Part shown: positions 4,033 through 55,560 of the stretch, one piece after another
How the letters are laid out: each line of letters starts with the position of its first letter
How positions within the stretch are numbered: the stretch's first letter is position 1
Origin: a virus
Taxonomy: Duplodnaviria > Heunggongvirae > Uroviricota > Caudoviricetes
IMG/VR virus record: IMGVR_UViG_2875713109_000001
Direction: 5' to 3' (one strand)
Length of the DNA: 64,000 bases
Translations under genes and position numbers: made by a program
Notes under the pieces: generated by a model
What the model was told of the DNA's origin: nothing
Databases searched by the model: none
The model's input: the letters and a program-made list of their open reading frames with translations, nothing else

Positions 4033-4049
4033 CCTGCTCTAATAAATTT
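4033..4049 (+). promoter_or_regulatory. C1 repressor operator-like site upstream of immI
   Basis: cctgctctaataaattt, 15/17 match to P1 C1 operator consensus ATTGCTCTAATAAATTT. Confidence 0.55.
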
Positions 4050-4199
4050 GTATTTTTAAGTCGCGAATGCTATCTTTTCGCATCATATTGACCTTTTAAT
4101 CGTTCAGGCTTATAGTTTCGCCGTCGTAGCAAATTCTGCGACCAGGTTTGACAGCCTGAATGATTGTGCGGACAACCGCAGATTTCCGATATTGCGGTA

Positions 4200-4295
4200 T
4201 TTTTGTGTCCGTTAAACCGCGTTACGCCCAAATTATGGTGGGGCGTGATGGGGAGGCTTCGGCCTGCTGGTTTCACAATCGCCAGTCTGTCAACC
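4200..4295 (+). ncRNA. c4: candidate c4-type antisense RNA (boundaries approximate)
   Basis: Between operator and icd; contains cacaatc complementary to gattgtg repeated at 4162-4168 and at 4346-4352 overlapping the icd Shine-Dalgarno; GC hairpin ggcttcggcc. Confidence 0.35.
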
Positions 4296-4363
4296 CTGTC
4301 ACGTCCTGCCACCTGTTTGACAGCGGGTAGCAGGTTGTTAAACCTGATTGTGAGGCCGTAACT

Positions 4364-4585
4364 ATGGTTAATGCCAATCCTTGCGCACGCCCAGAATTCA
4401 TCTGGCGTTTCTATTCCTGTAAAAAACACCACTATCACTTCGTTATCGCAGCAACTGAAGACGAAGCACGCTCTCAATTGCCTGATGGCCCCTGCATTTT
4501 TACTGCCCGTTTTTCAACTAACTCGCGCAATTCACTTAGTTACTGGAGCCTCCCCTTCTCTGCCGACGTTCAGGGGGGTTTATGA
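4364..4585 (+). CDS. icd: Icd-like cell-division interference protein
   Basis: 73-aa ORF, ATG with SD tgagg 8 nt upstream; stop overlaps ant start (ATGA); position between c4-like region and ant as in P1 immI. Confidence 0.65.
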   Translation: MVNANPCARPEFIWRFYSCKKHHYHFVIAATEDEARSQLPDGPCIFTARFSTNSRNSLSYWSLPFSADVQGGL

Positions 4586-5616
4586 AAACACCTCTCGTCA
4601 CCCGTAATGAAATAGCCGAAGCGATCGCCTTGCATACTGCCTGTATGCCGACACGGGAGATCCCCGGCGCAATTGCTAACTATTTCATGATAACCAGACG
4701 TTTTTATACCCGAACAGATAAGGCTGTGATCAACAGGCTACTGATAGCCGAGATCAGGGATTATTTGATTGAACAAGGACGTCTACGTTACGCAACAGTG
4801 GCAGCAGAAATGAGAAAGGAGGCACATAGAATGACCGGTAATAATTTAAATGTTGAAAAACCAGCACCTGTTGCTTCAGCTACGCCAGCACCAGCCCTGA
4901 ATGTCATCCCCAACACCGGAGACACAATCGACAGCCAAACATTGTTGAAGATGGTCAATGAGGCACGGAAATTATGTAGCGAAAAACCAGTTCGCAACAA
5001 TGATTTCATTGCCAGAGTTAAGGATGAGCTTGAAGGAGAAACCTACGAAATTTTCGTAGGTCAAAAAAACGGCGCAGAAATAGATATTATAACCATGACC
5101 TACAAACAAGCCCTGCGAGTTGCCGCGCGCGAGTCAAAAGCGGTCCGCCGTTCGCTGATCGACAAACTGGAAGAATTGCAGCAGGCAAACTCCCCTACCC
5201 CATCGATCCCCCAAACATTACCAGAAGCTCTACGCCTGGCTGCCGAGTTGGCAGAACAGAAAATGCAGTTGGAACAACAGCTGGTGGCCGCAGCCCCTAA
5301 AGTCGATTTTGCCGACCGGGTATCAGTGGCCAATGGAATCCTGATCGGGAACTTTGCAAAGGTCGTTGGACTTAAGCAAAACGCCCTTTTCTCATGGTTG
5401 CGCCAGAACGGCATTCTCATGGCTTTTGGTGCGCGCAAAAACGTACCGCGCCAACAGTACATCAACGCCGGGTATTTCACAGTGAAAGAAGTGGTGCTGG
5501 ATGATGAAAATGGCTACCAGATACGGCTGACGCCCCAATTAACGGGTAAAGGCCAGCAGTGGTTAACTCGCAAGCTACTTGATGCTGGTTTGTTAAAACC
5601 AGTAGCAATAGGTTAA
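4582..5616 (+). CDS. ant: antirepressor Ant (in-frame internal Met could give an Ant2-like form)
   Basis: 344 aa; C-terminal domain near-identical to the 51376..52491 product and similar to KilA C-terminus; immI position upstream of kilA-repL. Confidence 0.7.
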   Translation: MKTPLVTRNEIAEAIALHTACMPTREIPGAIANYFMITRRFYTRTDKAVINRLLIAEIRDYLIEQGRLRYATVAAEMRKEAHRMTGNNLNVEKPAPVASATPAPALNVIPNTGDTIDSQTLLKMVNEARKLCSEKPVRNNDFIARVKDELEGETYEIFVGQKNGAEIDIITMTYKQALRVAARESKAVRRSLIDKLEELQQANSPTPSIPQTLPEALRLAAELAEQKMQLEQQLVAAAPKVDFADRVSVANGILIGNFAKVVGLKQNALFSWLRQNGILMAFGARKNVPRQQYINAGYFTVKEVVLDDENGYQIRLTPQLTGKGQQWLTRKLLDAGLLKPVAIG

Positions 5617-5694: not shown

Positions 5695-5711
5695 TTTGCT
5701 CTAATAAATTT
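5695..5711 (+). promoter_or_regulatory. C1 operator-like site upstream of kilA
   Basis: tttgctctaataaattt, 16/17 match to C1 operator consensus. Confidence 0.6.
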
Positions 5712-5780: not shown

Positions 5781-6581
5781 ATGCAACAAACATTCAATGC
5801 GGATATGAATATATCAAACCTTCATCAAAATGTCGATCCTTCAACCACTCTGCCTGTTATTTGTGGTGTTGAAATTACGACCGACCGCGCTGGCCGTTAC
5901 AACCTTAATGCTCTACACAGAGCGAGCGGACTCGGTGCCCATAAAGCGCCAGCTCAATGGCTAAGAACGCTGTCAGCCAAACAGCTCATTGAAGAGCTTG
6001 AAAAAGAAACTATGCAGAATTGCATAGTTTCGTTCGAAGGCCGTGGCGGCGGCACTTTTGCACATGAATTGCTCGCAGTGGAGTACGCAGGTTGGATTTC
6101 TCCCGCGTTTCGGCTGAAGGTAAACCAGACATTTATCGACTATCGAGCTGGAAGATTACAACCTGCTATTCCGCAGAGCCTCCCAGAAGCTCTCCGTTTG
6201 GCTGCTGACCTGGCAGAGCAAAAGCAACGGCTGGAGCAAAAAATGCTGATGGATGCACCTAAAGTCGAATTCGCCGAACGCGTTGCTACCGCCAGCGGGG
6301 TTCTAATCGGCAACTATGCCAAAGTGCTCGGCCTGGGCCAAAACTATCTCTTCACCTGGTTGCGTGATAACGGAATTCTGATCGCAACCGGTGAACGCAG
6401 GAACGTCCCCAAACAAGAATACATATCCCGTGGGTATTTCACCCTTAAAGAAACCGTGATCGATACAAGCAATGGAAGCAGGATTTCTTTCACGACTCGT
6501 ATAACCGGCAAAGGTCAGCAGTGGCTGATGAAGCGATTGCTTGATGCTGGTGTGCTGGTACCTGTCGCGGCAACGCGCTAA
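5781..6581 (+). CDS. kilA: KilA-like protein
   Basis: 266 aa; ATG with SD tggagaaaaa; C-terminal domain homologous to Ant C-terminus; directly precedes repL. Confidence 0.7.
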   Translation: MQQTFNADMNISNLHQNVDPSTTLPVICGVEITTDRAGRYNLNALHRASGLGAHKAPAQWLRTLSAKQLIEELEKETMQNCIVSFEGRGGGTFAHELLAVEYAGWISPAFRLKVNQTFIDYRAGRLQPAIPQSLPEALRLAADLAEQKQRLEQKMLMDAPKVEFAERVATASGVLIGNYAKVLGLGQNYLFTWLRDNGILIATGERRNVPKQEYISRGYFTLKETVIDTSNGSRISFTTRITGKGQQWLMKRLLDAGVLVPVAATR

Positions 6582-48120: not shown

Positions 48121-49314
48121 GTGACCTGGGACGATCACAAGAAGAATTTTGCTCGCCTGGCGCGAGATGGTGGTTACACCATCGCACAGTATGCCGCCGA
48201 GTTTAATCTTAACCCTAATACCGCACGTCGTTATCTCCGTGCCTTCAAAGAAGACACCAGGACAGCGGACAGCCGCAAGCCAAATAAGCCAGTCAGGAAG
48301 CCACTAAAAAGCATGATCATTGATCACTCTAATGATCAACATTCCGGTGATCACATTGCGGCTGAAATAGCAGAAAAACAAAGGGTTAATGCCATTGTCA
48401 GTGTCGCAGTCGAGAATGCGAAGCGCCAAAATAAGCGCATAAATGATCGTTCAGATGATCATGACGTGATCACCCGCGCCCACCGGACCTTACGTGATCG
48501 CCTGGAACGCGACACCCTGGATGATGATGGTGAACGCTTTGAATTCGAAGCTGGCGATTACCTGATAGATAACGTTGAAGCGCGGAAGGCCGCGCGCGCT
48601 ATGTTGCGTCGGTCCGGGGCCGATGTTCTGGAAACCACTCTTCTTGAAAAGTCTCTTTCTCATCTCCTTATGCTGGAGAACGCCAGGGATACGTGTATTC
48701 GCCTGGTGCAGGAAATGCGCGATCAGCAAAAAGCCGATGATGAAGGTACTCCGCCTGAATACCGTATCGCGAGCATGCTAAACAGCTGTTCCGCGCAGAT
48801 AAGCAGTCTGATCAACACCATTTACAGCATCCGGAATAACTATCGAAAAGAAAGCCGGGAGGCGGAAAAGCACGCTTTGTCTATGGGGCAAGCTGGCATT
48901 GTTAAGCTGGCATACGAACGAAAGCGTGAAAATAACTGGTCAGTGCTGGAAGCAGCTGAATTTATCGAGGCGCATGGCGGGAAAGTGCCGCCCCTGATGC
49001 TGGAGCAAATCAAAGCCGATCTGCGTGCTCCTAAGACCAATACCGATGATGAGGAAAGGCAAACTGCCGTCGGTGGTCCTTCTCTTGAAGATCTGGACAA
49101 AGTTGCGCGAGAACGGGCCGCCAACCGCCGCGCCGATGCCGCATTGTGGATTGAGCAGCGTAGGGAAGAAATCGCCGATATCGTTGATACAGGCGGTTAT
49201 GGAGATGTTGATACTGAAGGTGTATCAAACGACCCATGGCTGGAACAAGACCTGGACGAAGACGAGGAGGAAGACGAAGAAGTTACCCGCAAGCTATACG
49301 GGGATGATGATTAA
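48121..49314 (+). CDS. pacA: terminase small subunit PacA
   Basis: 397-aa ORF containing the pac hexamer clusters; GTG start with SD aggaag; stop overlaps pacB start. Confidence 0.8.
48310..48475. other. pac: pac packaging site (4 + 3 GATC-containing hexamers)
   Basis: TGATCA/TGATCG hexamers at 48314, 48321, 48333, 48348 and 48444, 48456, 48468, matching the P1 pac layout. Confidence 0.7.
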
Positions 49315-50798
49315 TGGCCAGAAGTTGCGTAACGGATCCACGTTGGCGCGAGCTGGTGGCGCTATATCGTTATGACTGGATTGCGGCCGCTGATGTTTTG
49401 TTCGGCAAAACACCTACCTGGCAGCAGGATCTGATTATTGAGTCTGTGCAGGAACAGGGTAGCAAGACATCTGTTTCGTCTGGTCACGGTACCGGGAAAT
49501 CAGACATGACTTCTATCATGATCATGTTGTTCATAATCATGTATCCCGGTGCCCGAGCCATTATCGTTGCGAACAAAATTCAGCAGGTAATGACCGGTAT
49601 ATTCAAGTACATCAAGATAAACTGGGCTACTGCCACCAGCCGTTTTCCATGGCTTGCTGATTATTTTGTTCTGACAGAAACCGCTTTCTATGAGGTTACT
49701 GGTAAAGGTGTATGGACTGTAGTACCGAAGGGCTTTCGTCTGGGAAGTGAAGAAGCTCTCGCCGGTGAACACGCAGATCATCTTCTGTATATTATCGATG
49801 AAGCCTCCGGTGTCAGTGATAGAGCTTTCGGTATCATCACCGGTGCTCTTACCGGACAGGATAACCGCATCTTATTGCTGTCACAGCCTACACGCCCAAG
49901 CGGCTATTTCTACGATACACACCATAAACTGGCCAAGCGTCCTGGTAACCCTGATGGCGTTTATACGGCGATCACGCTTAACAGTGAGGAATCACCGCTG
50001 GTAACGCCAGCATTTATCAAAATGAAGCTGGCGGAGTACGGCGGGCGTGATAACCCTATGTACATGATTAAGGTACGCGGGCTATTCCCTAAATCACAGG
50101 ATGGCTTCCTTCTTGGACGTGATGAGGTTGAACGTGCAACGCGGCGGAAAGTCAAGATTGCCAAAGGATGGGGCTGGCTTGCATGTGTGGACGTTGCTGG
50201 TGGTACGGGAAGGGATAAGTCCGTTATCAATATCATGATGGTGTCCGGCCAGAGAAATAAACGCCGTGTAATCAACTATCGAATGCTGGAATACACAGAC
50301 GTTACAGAAACGCAGCTTGCCGCCAAAATTTTCGCAGAATGTAATCCTGAGCGATTCCCAAATATCACCATAGCGATAGACGGCGATGGTCTGGGTAAAG
50401 CAACGGCGGATCTGATGTACGAGTATTATGGTATTACCGTACAGCGTATACGCTGGGGTAAAAAGATGCATAGCCGTGAAGATAAGAGCCTGTACTTTGA
50501 TAAACGTGCTTATGCCAACGTTCAAGCCGCAGAGGCCGTAAAATCTGGTCGTATGAGACTGGATAAGGGTAATGAAACTATTGAGGAAGCGTCGAAAATC
50601 CCTGTAGGGATTAACTCCGCAGGTCAATGGAAGGTGATGAGTAAGGAAGATATGAAGAAAAAACTCAACCTGCACTCACCGGACCATTGGGATACATATT
50701 GTTTCGCTATGTTGGCGAACTATGTTCCCCAAGATGAAGTGCTTAGCGTCGAAGACGAAGCGCAGGTTGATGAAGCTCTGGCATGGCTTAATGAGTAA
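49314..50798 (+). CDS. pacB: terminase large subunit PacB
   Basis: 494 aa; Walker A-like SGHGTGKSD; ATG overlaps pacA stop (TAATG). Confidence 0.85.
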
Positions 50799-50801
50799 AA
50801 A

Positions 50802-50818
50802 CTTGCTCTAATAAATTG
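50802..50818 (+). promoter_or_regulatory. C1 operator-like site heading the second immI-like module
   Basis: cttgctctaataaattg, 15/17, 4 bp after pacB stop. Confidence 0.5.
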
Positions 50819-50950
50819 TGTTTTTTGACTGCCGATGTTACATTGAACCTGACCTCTTGCGCCTTGAGGCATTTTCGGTTTATGCTTATCAGGCACCTCA
50901 TTAAAACGGGTGCCGGGATTGGAACCCCGGATAATGCAAAAGGCGACACA

Positions 50951-50972
50951 GACGCCAAAAGCGTCTTTTTTT
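50951..50972 (+). terminator. terminator-like hairpin inside the module 2 leader
   Basis: gacgc-caaaa-gcgtc followed by ttttttt. Confidence 0.45.
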
Positions 50973-50989
50973 GTGTCATGCCATCGCAC

Positions 50990-51100
50990 AGCCATACGTA
51001 GCACATAGCTCCGAGATCAATGGTAGTGCTGGCTGGGCTGCCGAAAGGCAGGCCGGTTCCCTTTTGCGCCGGTAGTTCCAACCCAGTCAGTGCTACCGCC
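50990..51100 (+). ncRNA. candidate c4-type antisense RNA of second module (boundaries approximate)
   Basis: Contains gttccaa and cccttttg complementary to ttggaac and caaaagg, which occur both upstream (50912-50943) and overlapping the icd-like SD (51108-51149). Confidence 0.3.
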
Positions 51101-51157
51101 ATTGAGATTGGAACCTCACGCGGTAGCTCCTTAAGTTAGCAAAAGGAGGCTGCCATT

Positions 51158-51379
51158 GTGGCTACTATCCCTACCCCTGCTCATCCTGAATTTATCTGGC
51201 GCTTTTACTCCTGCCAAAAACGTCACTATCACTTCGTTATTGCACCGACAGAAGATGAGGCACGTTCTCAGCTTCCTGACGCCCCATGTATTTTCTCTGC
51301 CCGTTTTTCCACTGATTCACGCAATTCTCTCAGTTACTGGTGCCTCCCTGTTAACGCTTCTGCTCTGGAGGGGCTATGA
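51158..51379 (+). CDS. Icd-like protein (second copy)
   Basis: 73 aa; PEFIWRFYSC(Q/K)K(R/H)HYHFVIA shared with 4364..4585 product; GTG start with SD aaaaggagg. Confidence 0.6.
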   Translation: MATIPTPAHPEFIWRFYSCQKRHYHFVIAPTEDEARSQLPDAPCIFSARFSTDSRNSLSYWCLPVNASALEGL

Positions 51380-52491
51380 GAACATCATTAGTCACCCGTA
51401 AAGAAATGATCGAGGCAATTGAACAGCACACTGCCTGTATCAGTACCAGGGATATACCTGGCGTTATTGCCAACTACTTCATGATCACCAAACAACTTTA
51501 CCGGAGAAAGGACAAAAACGCGGTTCACCGCATTCTGCTAACCGATATCCGTGAATACCTGCTCGAACAGGGTCATCTGAATTACGCAACCGTCGCAGCC
51601 GAAGCACGCAAGGAGGCACACAGAATGAAAGCAACTAACGTTAAATCAGAAAAAACTCATGCACCTTCAGTTCAGGAATCGGAGCTGGTGGTTGTTCAGA
51701 ATCAGTCTGATGAAATTCCCGTTCTGGAATGGCTGGGAGTGCGTGTAGTGACAACTAAGATCCTTGCTAAGGGGTATGGGACAGATGCGGATAACATCAA
51801 GAAGAACTTTTCCCGTAATGCTGAACGTTTTTGTGAAGGCAAGCATTTCTATAAAGTTATTGGAGATGATTTGAACAATTTGCGGGTGACTTTAAGTAAC
51901 TCACAAAATCCTATCTCTCCTAAAGCCCGCTCACTCATCCTCTGGACGGAACGCGGCGCAGCCCGCCACGCTAAAATGATCGAAACCGATCAGGCATGGG
52001 CATTCTTTGAAAAACTGGAAGACAGCTACTTCCGACAAAAAGAACAGCAACCGATCGCAATCCCCCAGACGCTTCCAGAAGCTCTGCGCCTTGCTGCCGA
52101 ACTGGCTGAACAAAAGCAACTTCTGGAACAGAAAGCCCATCAGCTAAATCAGCAGCTGGTGGCCGCAGCCCCCAAAGTCGATTTTGCCGACCGGGTATCA
52201 GTGGCTAAGGGGATCCTGATTGGGAATTTTGCAAAGGTCGTTGGACTTAAACAAAATGCGCTGTTTGCCTGGTTACGGGAGAACGGCATTCTGATAGCGT
52301 CCGGCGGCCGTAAAAATGTACCGTTCCAGCAGTACATAAACGCCGGATATTTCACAGTGAAAGAAGTGGTGCTGGATGATGAAGAGGGCTACCAGATACG
52401 GCTGACGCCCCAATTAACGGGGAAAGGCCAACAGTGGTTGACGCGTAAACTGCTCGATGCTGGCTTGTTAAAACCGGTGGCGGCTGAATAA
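51376..52491 (+). CDS. antirepressor-like protein (Bro-N-like middle region plus Ant/KilA C-terminal domain)
   Basis: 371 aa; N-terminal about 80 aa and C-terminal about 140 aa homologous to Ant at 4582..5616, middle differs; ATG overlaps icd-like stop. Confidence 0.65.
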   Translation: MRTSLVTRKEMIEAIEQHTACISTRDIPGVIANYFMITKQLYRRKDKNAVHRILLTDIREYLLEQGHLNYATVAAEARKEAHRMKATNVKSEKTHAPSVQESELVVVQNQSDEIPVLEWLGVRVVTTKILAKGYGTDADNIKKNFSRNAERFCEGKHFYKVIGDDLNNLRVTLSNSQNPISPKARSLILWTERGAARHAKMIETDQAWAFFEKLEDSYFRQKEQQPIAIPQTLPEALRLAAELAEQKQLLEQKAHQLNQQLVAAAPKVDFADRVSVAKGILIGNFAKVVGLKQNALFAWLRENGILIASGGRKNVPFQQYINAGYFTVKEVVLDDEEGYQIRLTPQLTGKGQQWLTRKLLDAGLLKPVAAE

Positions 52492-52498
52492 TGGAAGA

Positions 52499-52520
52499 AT
52501 GCCCGGTTGATGCCGGGCAT
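52499..52520. terminator. bidirectional hairpin between ant-like gene and c1
   Basis: atgcccgg-ttgatg-ccgggcat perfect stem between convergent stops. Confidence 0.45.
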
Positions 52521-52523
52521 AAT

Positions 52524-53375
52524 TTATTGCGCGCTTTCGGGGTTGTCGTTTACTGGCTGCCCCTTCTTGGTTTTACGGCTGCGCGTAACTGATGCGGCTG
52601 ACTTAACCTTTTTCTCTTCGCGAGTGATGGCAATTTGTTTTTTTACATTTTCAATATCTGCCAGGCGATATATTTTTGCTTGTGGCCAGCGGTCGCAGAT
52701 GATCGGTTCTATGGAGTCATAAAGGCTAAATTTTGCTTTTTCGAATTCACCGTTGATGATGATTCCATCACGGAGAGTTTCATCGCAGATAAACACGCCA
52801 CACAGCGGTACATGGTAACTAACTGATTTACCATCATTGTAGTTAGGGCTACTGGAGATGTAGTGGACGCGCAGCATTGTTTCGCTAAAGCCGTGTACAC
52901 GCATACGGAATTTTTCATCCTCCGGGTACTGCCTCATTAGCTCTTTTGTTGCTTCCAGGTTCTCTATGTATTTCGCACTGTGCTCATTGATCCCCGCGCT
53001 TTTTTGGATGCGAATGTCCTTATCAATCAGATGAATAATGCGGCCAGCGGTCATGTTGACGCTGTTCACAGCTTCTGTCTGATAAGTTGTAACCTTGCGC
53101 ACACCGCGAAGGATGTTAGGCACTGGATATAAAATAGTCTTTGGGATATTGAGGTCTGGGTACTGTTCCAGTTCCCGCGCCATTAAAGTCCATTTATCAA
53201 TTTCAGCCTGAATGCTGTCAGTTTCTTTGAACGGTAGAACGACAACCGGGCGTACAGGACGACCGTCGCTGGCTGTATCAACGTGTTGGGCGCGTGCAAC
53301 AGCTTTTTTTAGAAAGAGATCCCTGAAGCTGACGAACTCCTGGTACAGTTGTTCGCCGTAGACATAATTTATCAT
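52524..53375 (-). CDS. c1: C1 repressor of lysis
   Basis: 283-aa ORF; strong SD ggaggag; position next to coi and loxP and surrounded by operator copies, as P1 immC. Confidence 0.8.
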   Translation of the reverse strand: MINYVYGEQLYQEFVSFRDLFLKKAVARAQHVDTASDGRPVRPVVVLPFKETDSIQAEIDKWTLMARELEQYPDLNIPKTILYPVPNILRGVRKVTTYQTEAVNSVNMTAGRIIHLIDKDIRIQKSAGINEHSAKYIENLEATKELMRQYPEDEKFRMRVHGFSETMLRVHYISSSPNYNDGKSVSYHVPLCGVFICDETLRDGIIINGEFEKAKFSLYDSIEPIICDRWPQAKIYRLADIENVKKQIAITREEKKVKSAASVTRSRKTKKGQPVNDNPESAQ

Positions 53376-53469: not shown

Positions 53470-53486
53470 AGATTTATTAGTGCATT
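53470..53486 (-). promoter_or_regulatory. C1 operator-like site between coi and c1
   Basis: agatttattagtgcatt, 14/17 to reverse-complement consensus. Confidence 0.5.
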
Positions 53487-53695
53487 TATTGTGAGTCTAA
53501 CTGGTTAGTTGCCATGAGATATTCGATTGTGTCAGTGAGGTCATCCAGGTCGTCTTGGGTGATGCGGTACTCCTGATTGGATATCTTTGAGTAGTGTTCA
53601 GCAATGGCGCGGGCAGCGTCGGTTTCGGCAGGGTCTACAGATAAAGCGTTAGAGCAATGTCTAACGTCGTCGATGGTTGGTTGAATGAAAGCCAT
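53486..53695 (-). CDS. coi: C1 inactivator Coi
   Basis: 69-aa ORF immediately upstream of c1 on same strand. Confidence 0.7.
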   Translation of the reverse strand: MAFIQPTIDDVRHCSNALSVDPAETDAARAIAEHYSKISNQEYRITQDDLDDLTDTIEYLMATNQLDSQ

Positions 53696-54528: not shown

Positions 54529-55560
54529 ATGTCCAATTTACTGACCGTACACCAAAATTTGCCTGCATTACCGGTCGATGCAAGGAGTGATGAGGTTCGC
54601 AAGAACCTGATGGACATGTTCAGGGATCGCCAGGCGTTTTCTGAGCATACCTGGAAAATGCTTCTGTCCGTTTGCCGGTCGTGGGCGGCATGGTGCAAGT
54701 TGAATAACCGGAAATGGTTTCCCGCAGAACCTGAAGATGTTCGCGATTATCTTCTATATCTTCAGGCGCGCGGTCTGGCAGTAAAAACTATCCAGCAACA
54801 TTTGGGCCAGCTAAACATGCTTCATCGTCGGTCCGGGCTGCCACGACCAAGTGACAGCAATGCTGTTTCACTGGTTATGCGGCGGATTCGAAAAGAAAAC
54901 GTTGATGCCGGTGAACGTGCAAAACAGGCATTGGCGTTCGAACGCACTGATTTCGACCAGGTTCGTTCACTCATGGAAAATAGCGATCGCTGCCAGGATA
55001 TACGGAATCTGGCATTTCTGGGGATTGCTTATAACACCCTGTTACGTATAGCCGAAATTGCCAGGATCAGGGTTAAAGATATCTCACGTACTGACGGTGG
55101 GAGAATGTTAATCCATATTGGCAGAACGAAAACGCTGGTTAGCACCGCAGGTGTAGAGAAGGCACTTAGCCTGGGGGTAACTAAACTGGTCGAGCGATGG
55201 ATTTCTGTCTCTGGTGTGGCTGATGATCCGAATAACTACCTGTTTTGCCGTGTCAGAAAAAATGGTGTTGCCGCGCCATCTGCCACCAGCCAGCTATCAA
55301 CTCGCGCTCTGGAAGGGATTTTTGAAGCAACTCATCGATTGATTTACGGCGCTAAGGATGACTCTGGGCAGAGATACCTGGCCTGGTCTGGACACAGTGC
55401 CCGTGTCGGAGCCGCGCGAGATATGGCCCGCGCCGGAGTTTCAATACCGGAGATCATGCAAGCTGGTGGCTGGACCAACGTAAATATTGTCATGAACTAT
55501 ATCCGTAACCTGGATAGTGAAACAGGGGCAATGGTGCGCCTGCTGGAAGATGGCGATTAG
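54529..55560 (+). CDS. cre: Cre tyrosine recombinase
   Basis: 343 aa, matches Cre (MSNLLTVHQNLPALPVD...LEDGD) with one apparent difference from my recalled reference (DARSDE versus DATSDE). Confidence 0.97.
   Translation: MSNLLTVHQNLPALPVDARSDEVRKNLMDMFRDRQAFSEHTWKMLLSVCRSWAAWCKLNNRKWFPAEPEDVRDYLLYLQARGLAVKTIQQHLGQLNMLHRRSGLPRPSDSNAVSLVMRRIRKENVDAGERAKQALAFERTDFDQVRSLMENSDRCQDIRNLAFLGIAYNTLLRIAEIARIRVKDISRTDGGRMLIHIGRTKTLVSTAGVEKALSLGVTKLVERWISVSGVADDPNNYLFCRVRKNGVAAPSATSQLSTRALEGIFEATHRLIYGAKDDSGQRYLAWSGHSARVGAARDMARAGVSIPEIMQAGGWTNVNIVMNYIRNLDSETGAMVRLLEDGD

Follow-up and report, generated by a model that had tools for sequence, protein, structure and literature searches.

A second C4-type antirepressor module between pacB and c1 of P1-like phage-plasmids, its recognition words and a possible kinship with IsrK

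The DNA described here, hereafter the window, is a stretch of 64,000 nucleotides from the IMG/VR record IMGVR_UViG_2875713109_000001 that represents a P1-like phage-plasmid and in which 1,725 bp (50799-52523) lie between the stop codon of pacB and that of the repressor gene c1. In the reference P1 genome (NC_005856), the two stop codons are only 24 bp apart, in agreement with the P1 map given in an earlier sequence-only reading of the window, in which c1 directly follows pacB, so that this interval amounts to a 1.7-kb insertion relative to P1. The insertion holds a set of elements resembling the immI immunity operon of P1, namely, a site similar to the operators of the C1 repressor, a terminated leader RNA, an antisense RNA of the C4 family, an icd-like gene and the antirepressor gene ant, and is denoted module 2 to distinguish it from the module at the canonical immI position of the same genome (module 1). 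Comparison with the reference genomes did not find module 2 in P1 or P7, including the corresponding position in P1, and the matches of both phages to a module-2 query are confined to the C-terminal portion of their immI ant genes. The curated annotation of P1 immI (NC_005856) lists Oc4, P2c4, P1c4, a1, b1, c4, a2, b2, icd, ant1 and ant2, and counterparts of all these features occur in module 2 in the same order and with near-identical spacing; the matches to Rfam, Pfam and NCBIfam models agree with this correspondence, which upholds the claim of the sequence-only reading that a second, complete c4/icd/ant module is present.

Elements of the pacB-c1 insertion

The insertion opens with CTTGCTCTAATAAATTG (50802-50818, plus strand, as are all elements below unless indicated otherwise), a C1 operator-like site with two mismatches to the P1 operator consensus, in the position of Oc4/Op51 in P1 immI. 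The window contains 15 C1 operator-like sites compared with the 0.37 expected from shuffles, and the one considered here is almost invariant in an alignment of 58 related pacB-c1 loci. It begins 3 nt past the pacB stop, where the sequence-only reading had given 4 nt; all the elements listed there were found at, or within a few bases of, their assigned places. Overlapping the 3' end of the operator, just as annotated for P2c4 in P1, is the -35 element TTGTGT (50816-50821) of a putative C1-controlled promoter (50816-50844) that has a 17-nt spacer and the -10 element TACATT (50839-50844), corresponds in position to P2c4 (P51a) and is conserved in sequence in related loci. A second putative promoter (50857-50886; -35 TTGCGC, 18-nt spacer, -10 TATGCT), which would serve the leader and C4, is the positional equivalent of P1c4 (P51b) in P1 and of the isrK promoter, and its -10 element ends 7 nt ahead of the first base of the Rfam isrK match described below; D6 and an Stx phage have TATATT in this -10 position. 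The two promoters are separated by 13 nt and the leader -10 from a1 by 33 nt, compared with 12 and 32 nt in P1. Both are assigned by positional homology with the P1 annotation, and the surrounding stretch is nearly invariant in relatives.

The leader RNA (50893-50973) belongs to the IsrK type, with a match to the Rfam model isrK (RF01394) at 50893-50971 that covers model positions 1-77 and scores 62.4 bits against a gathering score of 50. It contains a1, TTGGAAC (50919-50925), in a hairpin loop, and b1, GCAAAAGG (50936-50943), which are exact complements of the C4 elements a' and b', respectively, and closes with an intrinsic terminator detected by both the terminator scan and folding (hairpin 50950-50966, T-run to 50973). 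The hairpin and T-run had been recognized from the sequence alone, but the membership of the leader in the IsrK family had been missed. The predicted fold consists of three hairpins, the last of which is the terminator, although with a z-score of only -1.66. The c4-a1b1 model (RF03163), which the module-1 leader passes with 55.2 bits, scores 23.1 bits on the module-2 leader (E = 0.0011), below the threshold of 46.7, and aligns to the same hairpin with a1 in the loop. In the 58 aligned pacB-c1 leaders, most of the variation falls within a1, b1 and the terminator loop, and the operator and promoter region is almost invariant.

The C4 RNA gene (51016-51103) matches the Rfam C4 model (RF01695) over its full length, with 76.7 bits against a gathering score of 45 (E = 3e-13), and folds with a minimum free energy (MFE) of -46.4 kcal/mol (z = -5.46; none of 200 shuffles was as stable). 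In the MFE and centroid structures alike, and in agreement with the Rfam consensus structure, b', CCUUUUGC (51060-51067), occupies the loop of the second hairpin, and a', GUUCCAA (51075-51081), a single-stranded stretch beside that loop. The downstream targets follow in the same layout as in P1: a2, TTGGAAC (51108-51114), is the exact complement of a', and b2, GCAAAAGG (51139-51146), overlaps the icd Shine-Dalgarno sequence AAGGAGG (51143-51149). Cognate duplex energies at a2 and b2 are -9.7 and -12.4 kcal/mol, compared with -4 to -6 kcal/mol for the module-1 sites. Duplexes between C4 and its targets were restricted to the loop elements because whole-molecule RNAduplex comparisons of C4 with the leader or the downstream region ignore the structure of C4 itself and are uninformative.

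On top of the C4 gene lies a 39-codon open reading frame (ORF; 51020-51139) of uncertain coding status, the counterpart of orf45 in Gifsy-1, which the Prokaryotic Genome Annotation Pipeline (PGAP) calls an 'ash family protein', as in the near-identical plasmid NZ_CP062902 (L010, 822-941), and which scores 32.4 bits against Pfam PF10554. It starts at the same AUG as Gifsy-1 orf45 and is open in all the isrK-type modules checked, with a length of 39 codons in the window, RCS47 and D6 and 45 codons in Gifsy-1; in P1 immI, the frame closes after 14 codons. In the AGGCCAA/CCTTGGAC type (L004, 3050-3409), this ORF continues in frame into icd, and in the Stx2 phage F039 (L007, 2604-3002), into a Rha-like gene; such fusions would give N-terminally extended products if translated. 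The 'ash family protein' called over an RNA gene is likely a mis-annotation, and the PF10554 family itself may in part be the translation of an RNA gene, or else the region may have a dual function. Three other ORFs over the leader and C4 regions (50816-51001, plus strand; 50788-51102 and 4070-4477, minus strand) match nothing in Pfam or NCBIfam and were treated as non-coding.

The icd-like gene (51158-51379) encodes a 73-aa protein from a GTG start codon; the product is 79% identical to the Icd of module 1 and scores 49.8 bits against the NCBIfam model NF033153 (phage_ICD_like; cut-off 25). Its stop codon overlaps the start of ant (ATGA, 51376-51379). The 371-aa product of ant (51376-52491), denoted Ant-2, combines a P1-Ant-like N-terminus (residues 1-84) with an ORF6N domain in the center (Pfam, 65.9 bits) and a C-terminal ANT/KilAC domain (107.7 bits). 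Relative to module-1 Ant (55% identity), residues 1-84 and the last third of the protein are conserved and the center is replaced; the central ORF6N domain is closest to antirepressors of Stx and lambdoid phages, with 70% identity to Ant of the Stx phage P27. An internal start codon (M84, 51625), with AAGGAGG at 51610-51616, aligns with the start of ant2 in P1. A third paralog of the Ant C-terminus within the window is the KilAC domain encoded by kilA (5781-6581; a KilA-N/KilAC protein), which, as in P1, is preceded by a C1 operator with one mismatch (5695-5711). Between the convergent ant and c1, the terminator scan identified a G+C-rich hairpin (52499-52520; 9-bp stem with 6 GC pairs) that is likely to be a bidirectional terminator.

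Recognition words and distribution of the modules

Module 1 (4033-5616), delineated by Rfam matches, sequence, ORFs and comparison with P1 and P7, lies where it had been placed by the sequence-only reading and consists of an operator (4033-4049), a c4-a1b1 leader (4110-4162, Rfam), C4 (4231-4316, Rfam), icd (4364-4585) and ant (4582-5616), all on the plus strand. Its recognition sequences (hereafter words; window positions 4140-4366) are a, TTGACAG (CUGUCAA in C4), which is of the P1 type, and b, GATTGTG (CACAAUC in C4), which is of the P7 type. By this combination of a P1-type a with a P7-type b, the predicted immunity type of module 1 is neither that of P1 nor that of P7.

In module 2, the C4 words are GUUCCAA and CCUUUUGC, and their targets TTGGAAC and GCAAAAGG. 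Loop-restricted duplexes at single sites have energies of -9.7 to -13.1 kcal/mol for cognate pairs and -4.1 to -7.0 kcal/mol for the cross pairs between modules 1 and 2. Summed over the loop-target pairs, the cognate energies are -20 and -21 kcal/mol compared with -10 kcal/mol for both cross combinations, consistent with the claim, made from the sequence alone, that the two antisense RNAs differ in specificity. Fewer positions distinguish the recognition sequences of the heteroimmune phages P1 and P7 (PMC12197685, PMC6906374) than those of modules 1 and 2. Taken at the level of sequence and predicted pairing, these comparisons support orthogonal C4 specificities of the two modules.

An initial alignment of the window with RCS47, two plasmids, 673R5, D6, an Stx2 phage and P1 indicated that a1, a' and a2 change together, and so do b1, b' and b2. 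We then fetched 79 Icd-encoding loci from IMG/VR, in which 78 C4 modules were found (89 with the window and the reference loci). In all 78, both C4 elements have a 7-11-nt complement, by Watson-Crick or G-U pairing, upstream as well as downstream. Overall, 15 specificity types were distinguished, P7 and Gifsy-1 included, and five of these occur at the pacB-c1 site: AGGCCAA/CCTTGGAC (27 loci), GTCTCAA/CCTTTTGC (14 loci), GTCTCAA/CCTTTGAC (7 loci), GTTCCAA/CCTTTGAC (4 loci) and the type of the window, GTTCCAA/CCTTTTGC (7 loci). Because these five types share words in different pairings, the a and b words evidently reassort; in the modules at the immI position, two a words are combined with five b words. 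For each of the 15 types, its own targets score best, both upstream and downstream, with mean cognate energies of -20.5 (downstream) and -19.0 kcal/mol (upstream) compared with -11.8 and -12.2 kcal/mol, respectively, for non-cognate targets, and none of 20,000 permutations reached the observed mean cognate energy. Covariation of this kind would be expected if all six sites have a function and their specificity is under diversifying pressure.

In every two-module genome sampled, the barcodes, that is, the pairs of a and b words, of the two modules differ (for example, L023/L082, L044/L084, L033/L085, L018/L083 and L019/L057). Two IMG/VR contigs (L046, 1328-4398; L057, 2213-5219) carry an IsrK-type leader and C4 with the barcode of the window joined to the C-terminal part of ant, kilA and repL of the immI position, and cassettes are therefore exchanged between the two locations through recombination in icd/ant. 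In one contig, L018 (1-4965), the pacB-c1 module is duplicated in tandem, and the second copy takes in the last ~44 bp of pacB; the duplication is either real or an assembly artefact.

RCS47 (95% identical along the full 1.7 kb), JL22 and vB_EcoM-673R5 carry the same module between pacB and c1, and pTZ20_1P and other P1-like plasmids also carry a pacB-c1 insertion with the same gene content. At least 80% of the module is found in 315 PLSDB plasmids, compared with 702 that have c1 (~45%). Among complete Escherichia coli genomes, 316 of 5,426 hold at least 80% of the part comprising the RNAs and icd, and 551 of the 621 matching places are on plasmids. A query spanning the junction confirmed the linkage to pacB and revealed variants that diverge just past the leader terminator. 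Over 328 bp spanning the leader, C4 and the icd start, module 2 is 93% identical to the corresponding immI-like stretch of the plasmid prophage D6. The tandem of isrK and C4 is common among Stx phages, in which it lies ahead of a Rha-like gene and icd is absent; one such record annotates both RNAs. This mosaic make-up, together with the absence of the module from P1 and P7, favors acquisition by recombination, in line with the acquired cassette proposed in the sequence-only reading; given the prevalence of ~45%, the module may instead have been lost in the P1/P7 lineage. The junctions were examined for the polarity of the event: the 24-bp spacer of P1 has only ATGCCGG and a few other bases in common with the 3' arm of the hairpin that ends the module, a match too short to tell gain from loss.

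The leader RNA, IsrK and other known systems

Most of module 2 has a precedent in the immI operons of P1 and P7 (Citron & Schuster 1990), the mechanism of which is summarized in PMC8198154. In common are the C1 operator-like site, two putative promoters in equivalent positions, the a1 and b1 sites, a C4 RNA of the same family (RF01695), the a2 and b2 sites over the ribosome-binding site of icd, the coupling of icd to ant, the nested ant2 start, the Icd sequence (79% identity) and the conserved Ant termini. The differences are the location (between sim and kilA for immI, between pacB and c1 for module 2), the leader (c4-a1b1 in immI, a fit to the isrK model in module 2) and the unrelated recognition words; furthermore, the ORF6N center of Ant and the open frame across C4 that are seen in module 2 are lacking in P1 immI.

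The region isrK-orf45-anrP of the Salmonella prophage Gifsy-1 similarly consists of a terminated IsrK-type leader followed by a C4-family RNA and an antirepressor gene, with a1, b1, a', b', a2 and b2 in the same layout and an AUG-initiated ORF over C4. It differs from module 2 in lacking icd and a C1 operator, in having b2 on the ribosome-binding site of the antirepressor gene itself and in having a lambdoid repressor in place of C1. On the minus strand of the Gifsy-1 record (NC_010392, L009), the Rfam matches are isrK at 34316-34240 and C4 at 34214-34131. The c4-a1b1 model, a member of clan CL00128, also passes its threshold on the Gifsy-1 isrK stretch, and because both models pass on the same stretch, the two families overlap; isrK (RF01394) is not assigned to any clan. 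The Gifsy-1 words are TTGGCGT (a1) and TCACCG (b1) in IsrK, CGGUGA and ACGCCAA in C4, and TTGGCGT (a2) and TCACCGGAGG (b2) at the antirepressor ribosome-binding site.

In the published model of Gifsy-1, which does not mention C4, orf45 is a protein-coding gene that IsrK switches on at the level of translation (Hershko-Shalev et al. 2016; PMC4825925). When positions are counted from the first base of isrK, the coordinates given in Table 1 of that work (PMC4825925) are recovered: orf45 begins at A107, its second AUG (119-121) corresponds to the AUGG that is conserved at the C4 5' end, and its stop codon overlaps the AUG of anrP. The compensatory pairs G28-C162 and G31-C159, which were validated by experiment and published as an IsrK-orf45 pairing (PMC4825925), coincide with the pairing of a1 (+26 to +32) with a' (+158 to +164). 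In the same study, short IsrK supplied in trans increased antirepressor translation ~140-fold, orf45 was found to be conserved in nucleotides and not in amino acids, a processed RNA, STnc1160, was derived from orf45, and a tagged orf45 product was detected (PMC4825925). Hfq binding, and trans-activation of antirepressor translation by the short IsrK isoform, have been shown by experiment for Gifsy-1 only (PMC4825925). On the strength of the sequence correspondence, Gifsy-1 IsrK-orf45-anrP is, in our reading, an a1b1-leader/C4/antirepressor module; STnc1160 is then probably C4 itself, and the ~140-fold effect can be read as sequestration of C4 by a terminated leader carrying a1 and b1. To our knowledge, the role of the a1 and b1 sites has remained unexplained. 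We give about an even chance to the proposal that Gifsy-1 IsrK and the a1/b1-bearing leader of immI are one device, in which the terminated leader titrates or chaperones C4 and thus acts as an anti-antisense RNA. No link between IsrK and C4 was found in the literature searched, and a 2025 review handles the two as unrelated.

Other systems are related to parts of module 2. The immI-like region of D6 shares, besides the 93% identity of leader, C4 and icd start, the b specificity GCAAAAGG, and differs in the a specificity (TTGAGAC), in a Rha/Roi/KilA-like antirepressor of 313 aa and in the flanking genes; the D6-like pYU39_89 contains two c4/icd regions in one plasmid prophage (PMC6799933). The insertion in RCS47 differs in its barcode, TTGAGAC/GTCAAAGG, and the RCS47 record annotates only ant in it. 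The pacB-c1 insertion was noted in 2019 by Venturini et al. as 'two short hypothetical orfs and ant', without analysis of RNAs or specificity (PMC6906374). We found no previous analysis of this insertion as an RNA-gated module, or of its barcode diversity, in a search that was incomplete, so that an earlier description may exist. A comparable arrangement is the immI region of P22, a secondary immunity region in which the small antisense RNA sar limits ant synthesis and which works in a similar way; sar, however, is an unrelated RNA, a true cis-antisense transcribed from the opposite strand; it neither recognizes its target through loops at two sites nor is accompanied by icd, and the repressor system is unrelated. 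The mechanism proposed for module 2 is that of a known system, and what makes the module noteworthy is the population-level picture and the link to IsrK.

Proposed working, competing explanations and implications

We consider it probable, with good confidence on the grounds of sequence comparison, that 50799-52523 is a working second operon of the immI type, a C4-gated antirepressor switch with its own, orthogonal specificity. Promoter use, processing of the RNA, the targeting of C1 by Ant-2 and a decoy role of the leader are what we infer by analogy within this scheme. Transcription would start at two promoters, of which the upstream one, overlapped by the C1 operator, would be shut in the lysogen, and the downstream one would produce the leader. 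Most of the leader transcripts would end at the terminator at 50950-50973, yielding a short IsrK-type RNA, and those that read through would contain C4, to be excised as a stable RNA of ~80 nt. The C4 loop CCUUUUGC and the single-stranded GUUCCAA could then pair with b2 and a2 on the mRNA of the same operon, or of a superinfecting phage of matching type, and so mask the ribosome-binding site of icd; given the translational coupling of ant to icd through the ATGA overlap, synthesis of Icd and Ant would be blocked together. Where C4 is absent or mismatched, Ant would be made and would inactivate the C1 repressor. The two switches would be independent because the a/b barcode of module 2 differs from that of the module at the immI position, so that the prophage is predicted to silence incoming relatives bearing either barcode and, as an invader, to escape residents that lack either one of its two C4 types. 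The a1 and b1 sites of the leader would pair with C4 and modulate its availability, most likely as a decoy, which is the least secure part of the explanation and which we judge to be evenly poised between right and wrong.

A broader picture, in which P1-like phage-plasmids run a two-locus, combinatorial RNA 'barcode' immunity and IsrK is equated with the a1/b1 leader of immI, may or may not hold as a joint reading, with the balance at the midpoint. In this picture, each locus would be an independently reassorting pair of 7-8-nt words, each word occurring three times, in the leader, in C4 and at the ribosome-binding site. Competition between related plasmid prophages would have diversified the words, and immunity groups would be set by up to four words and not by the classical P1/P7 dichotomy.

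Several observations weigh against a functional module 2, or against parts of the scheme. The icd gene starts with GTG in the window and with ATG at the same position in RCS47, D6 and other types. A generic sigma-70 promoter scan reported no promoter near the operator, and both putative promoters are weak matches to the consensus. Short duplexes of similar energy arise by chance elsewhere in the window, so that specificity rests on two sites and their position and not on energy alone. The center of Ant-2 differs from that of P1 Ant, and its binding to C1 is, judging by the sequence, not assured. A cis mutation in the a1 site of Gifsy-1 led to higher basal translation of the antirepressor (PMC4825925, Table 1D), which a pure decoy model does not predict and because of which the leader may also aid the folding or maturation of C4.

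The replaced center of Ant-2, closest to antirepressors of the Stx and lambdoid phages and 70% identical to P27 Ant, is also the starting point of the main competing explanation, under which the RNA switch works as described and Ant-2 is directed at a repressor encoded by a different resident prophage, whether lambdoid, Stx or D6-like, resulting in cross-talk between prophages rather than heteroimmunity among P1 relatives. The near-identity of the RNA part to D6 immI (93%) is in line with this view, as is the action of Gifsy antirepressors in trans on the repressors of other prophages (PMC3121763). Nevertheless, the operon is headed by a conserved C1 operator, the Ant1-specific N-terminus and the KilAC C-terminus are strongly P1-Ant-like in the aligned segments, the nested ant2-type start has been kept and hundreds of P1-like plasmids carry the module in linkage with c1, so that we regard this explanation as unlikely although by no means negligible.

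Far less probable is a device for plasmid stabilization or abortive infection, in which Icd would be a toxin held in check by C4 as an RNA antitoxin, with the antirepressor in a secondary role. Icd-like proteins inhibit cell division (P1 annotation; PMC8198154), the element is a low-copy plasmid prophage and C4 would be a cis-encoded RNA repressor of icd translation, all of which would suit an addiction system. The toxin and the RNA, however, are on one transcript and would be lost together, with nothing to suggest a long-lived icd mRNA; the Stx-phage and Gifsy-1 versions that lack icd keep the leader, C4 and the antirepressor; and covarying barcode diversity is a prediction of competition between related phages and not of addiction. 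Least credible of all is that the module is a decaying, non-functional duplicate or a hitch-hiking insertion, as might be thought from its dispensability (P1 and P7 do without it), weak promoters and the GTG start of icd: all its ORFs are intact, the RNA matches the family model over the full length, the six interacting sites are exactly complementary and change together across types, and hundreds of plasmids carry it. A second immI-type switch acting within P1-like immunity thus seems to us the best account of module 2.

P1 serves as a textbook model and is in wide use as a tool, and P1-like phage-plasmids carry extended-spectrum beta-lactamase (ESBL) and other resistance genes. Their coexistence, exclusion and induction depend on immunity specificity, which has so far been described only from the immI locus of P1 and P7. 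A second, apparently orthogonal RNA-gated antirepressor in nearly half of the natural P1-like plasmids, with at least five specificity types and recombination with the immI locus, would therefore make the immunity landscape multi-locus and combinatorial, and the barcodes could serve for typing phage-plasmids. The module also joins two separate literatures, on C4 of P1 and on IsrK of Salmonella, and yields an experimentally backed hypothesis for the a1 and b1 sites; if true, the reading of IsrK as a leader would give these sites a function and re-interpret a published mechanism of small RNA action.

With regard to the surroundings of module 2, the ORF list places pacA at 48121-49314 and pacB at 49314-50798 on one side and, on the other, c1 (52524-53375, minus strand, convergent with ant), coi (53486-53695, minus strand) and cre (54529-55560). 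The window additionally contains three tRNA genes (25070-25220 and 27028-27100; Rfam tRNA, 65-75 bits), which are expected of the P1 tRNA cluster and are unrelated to the module.

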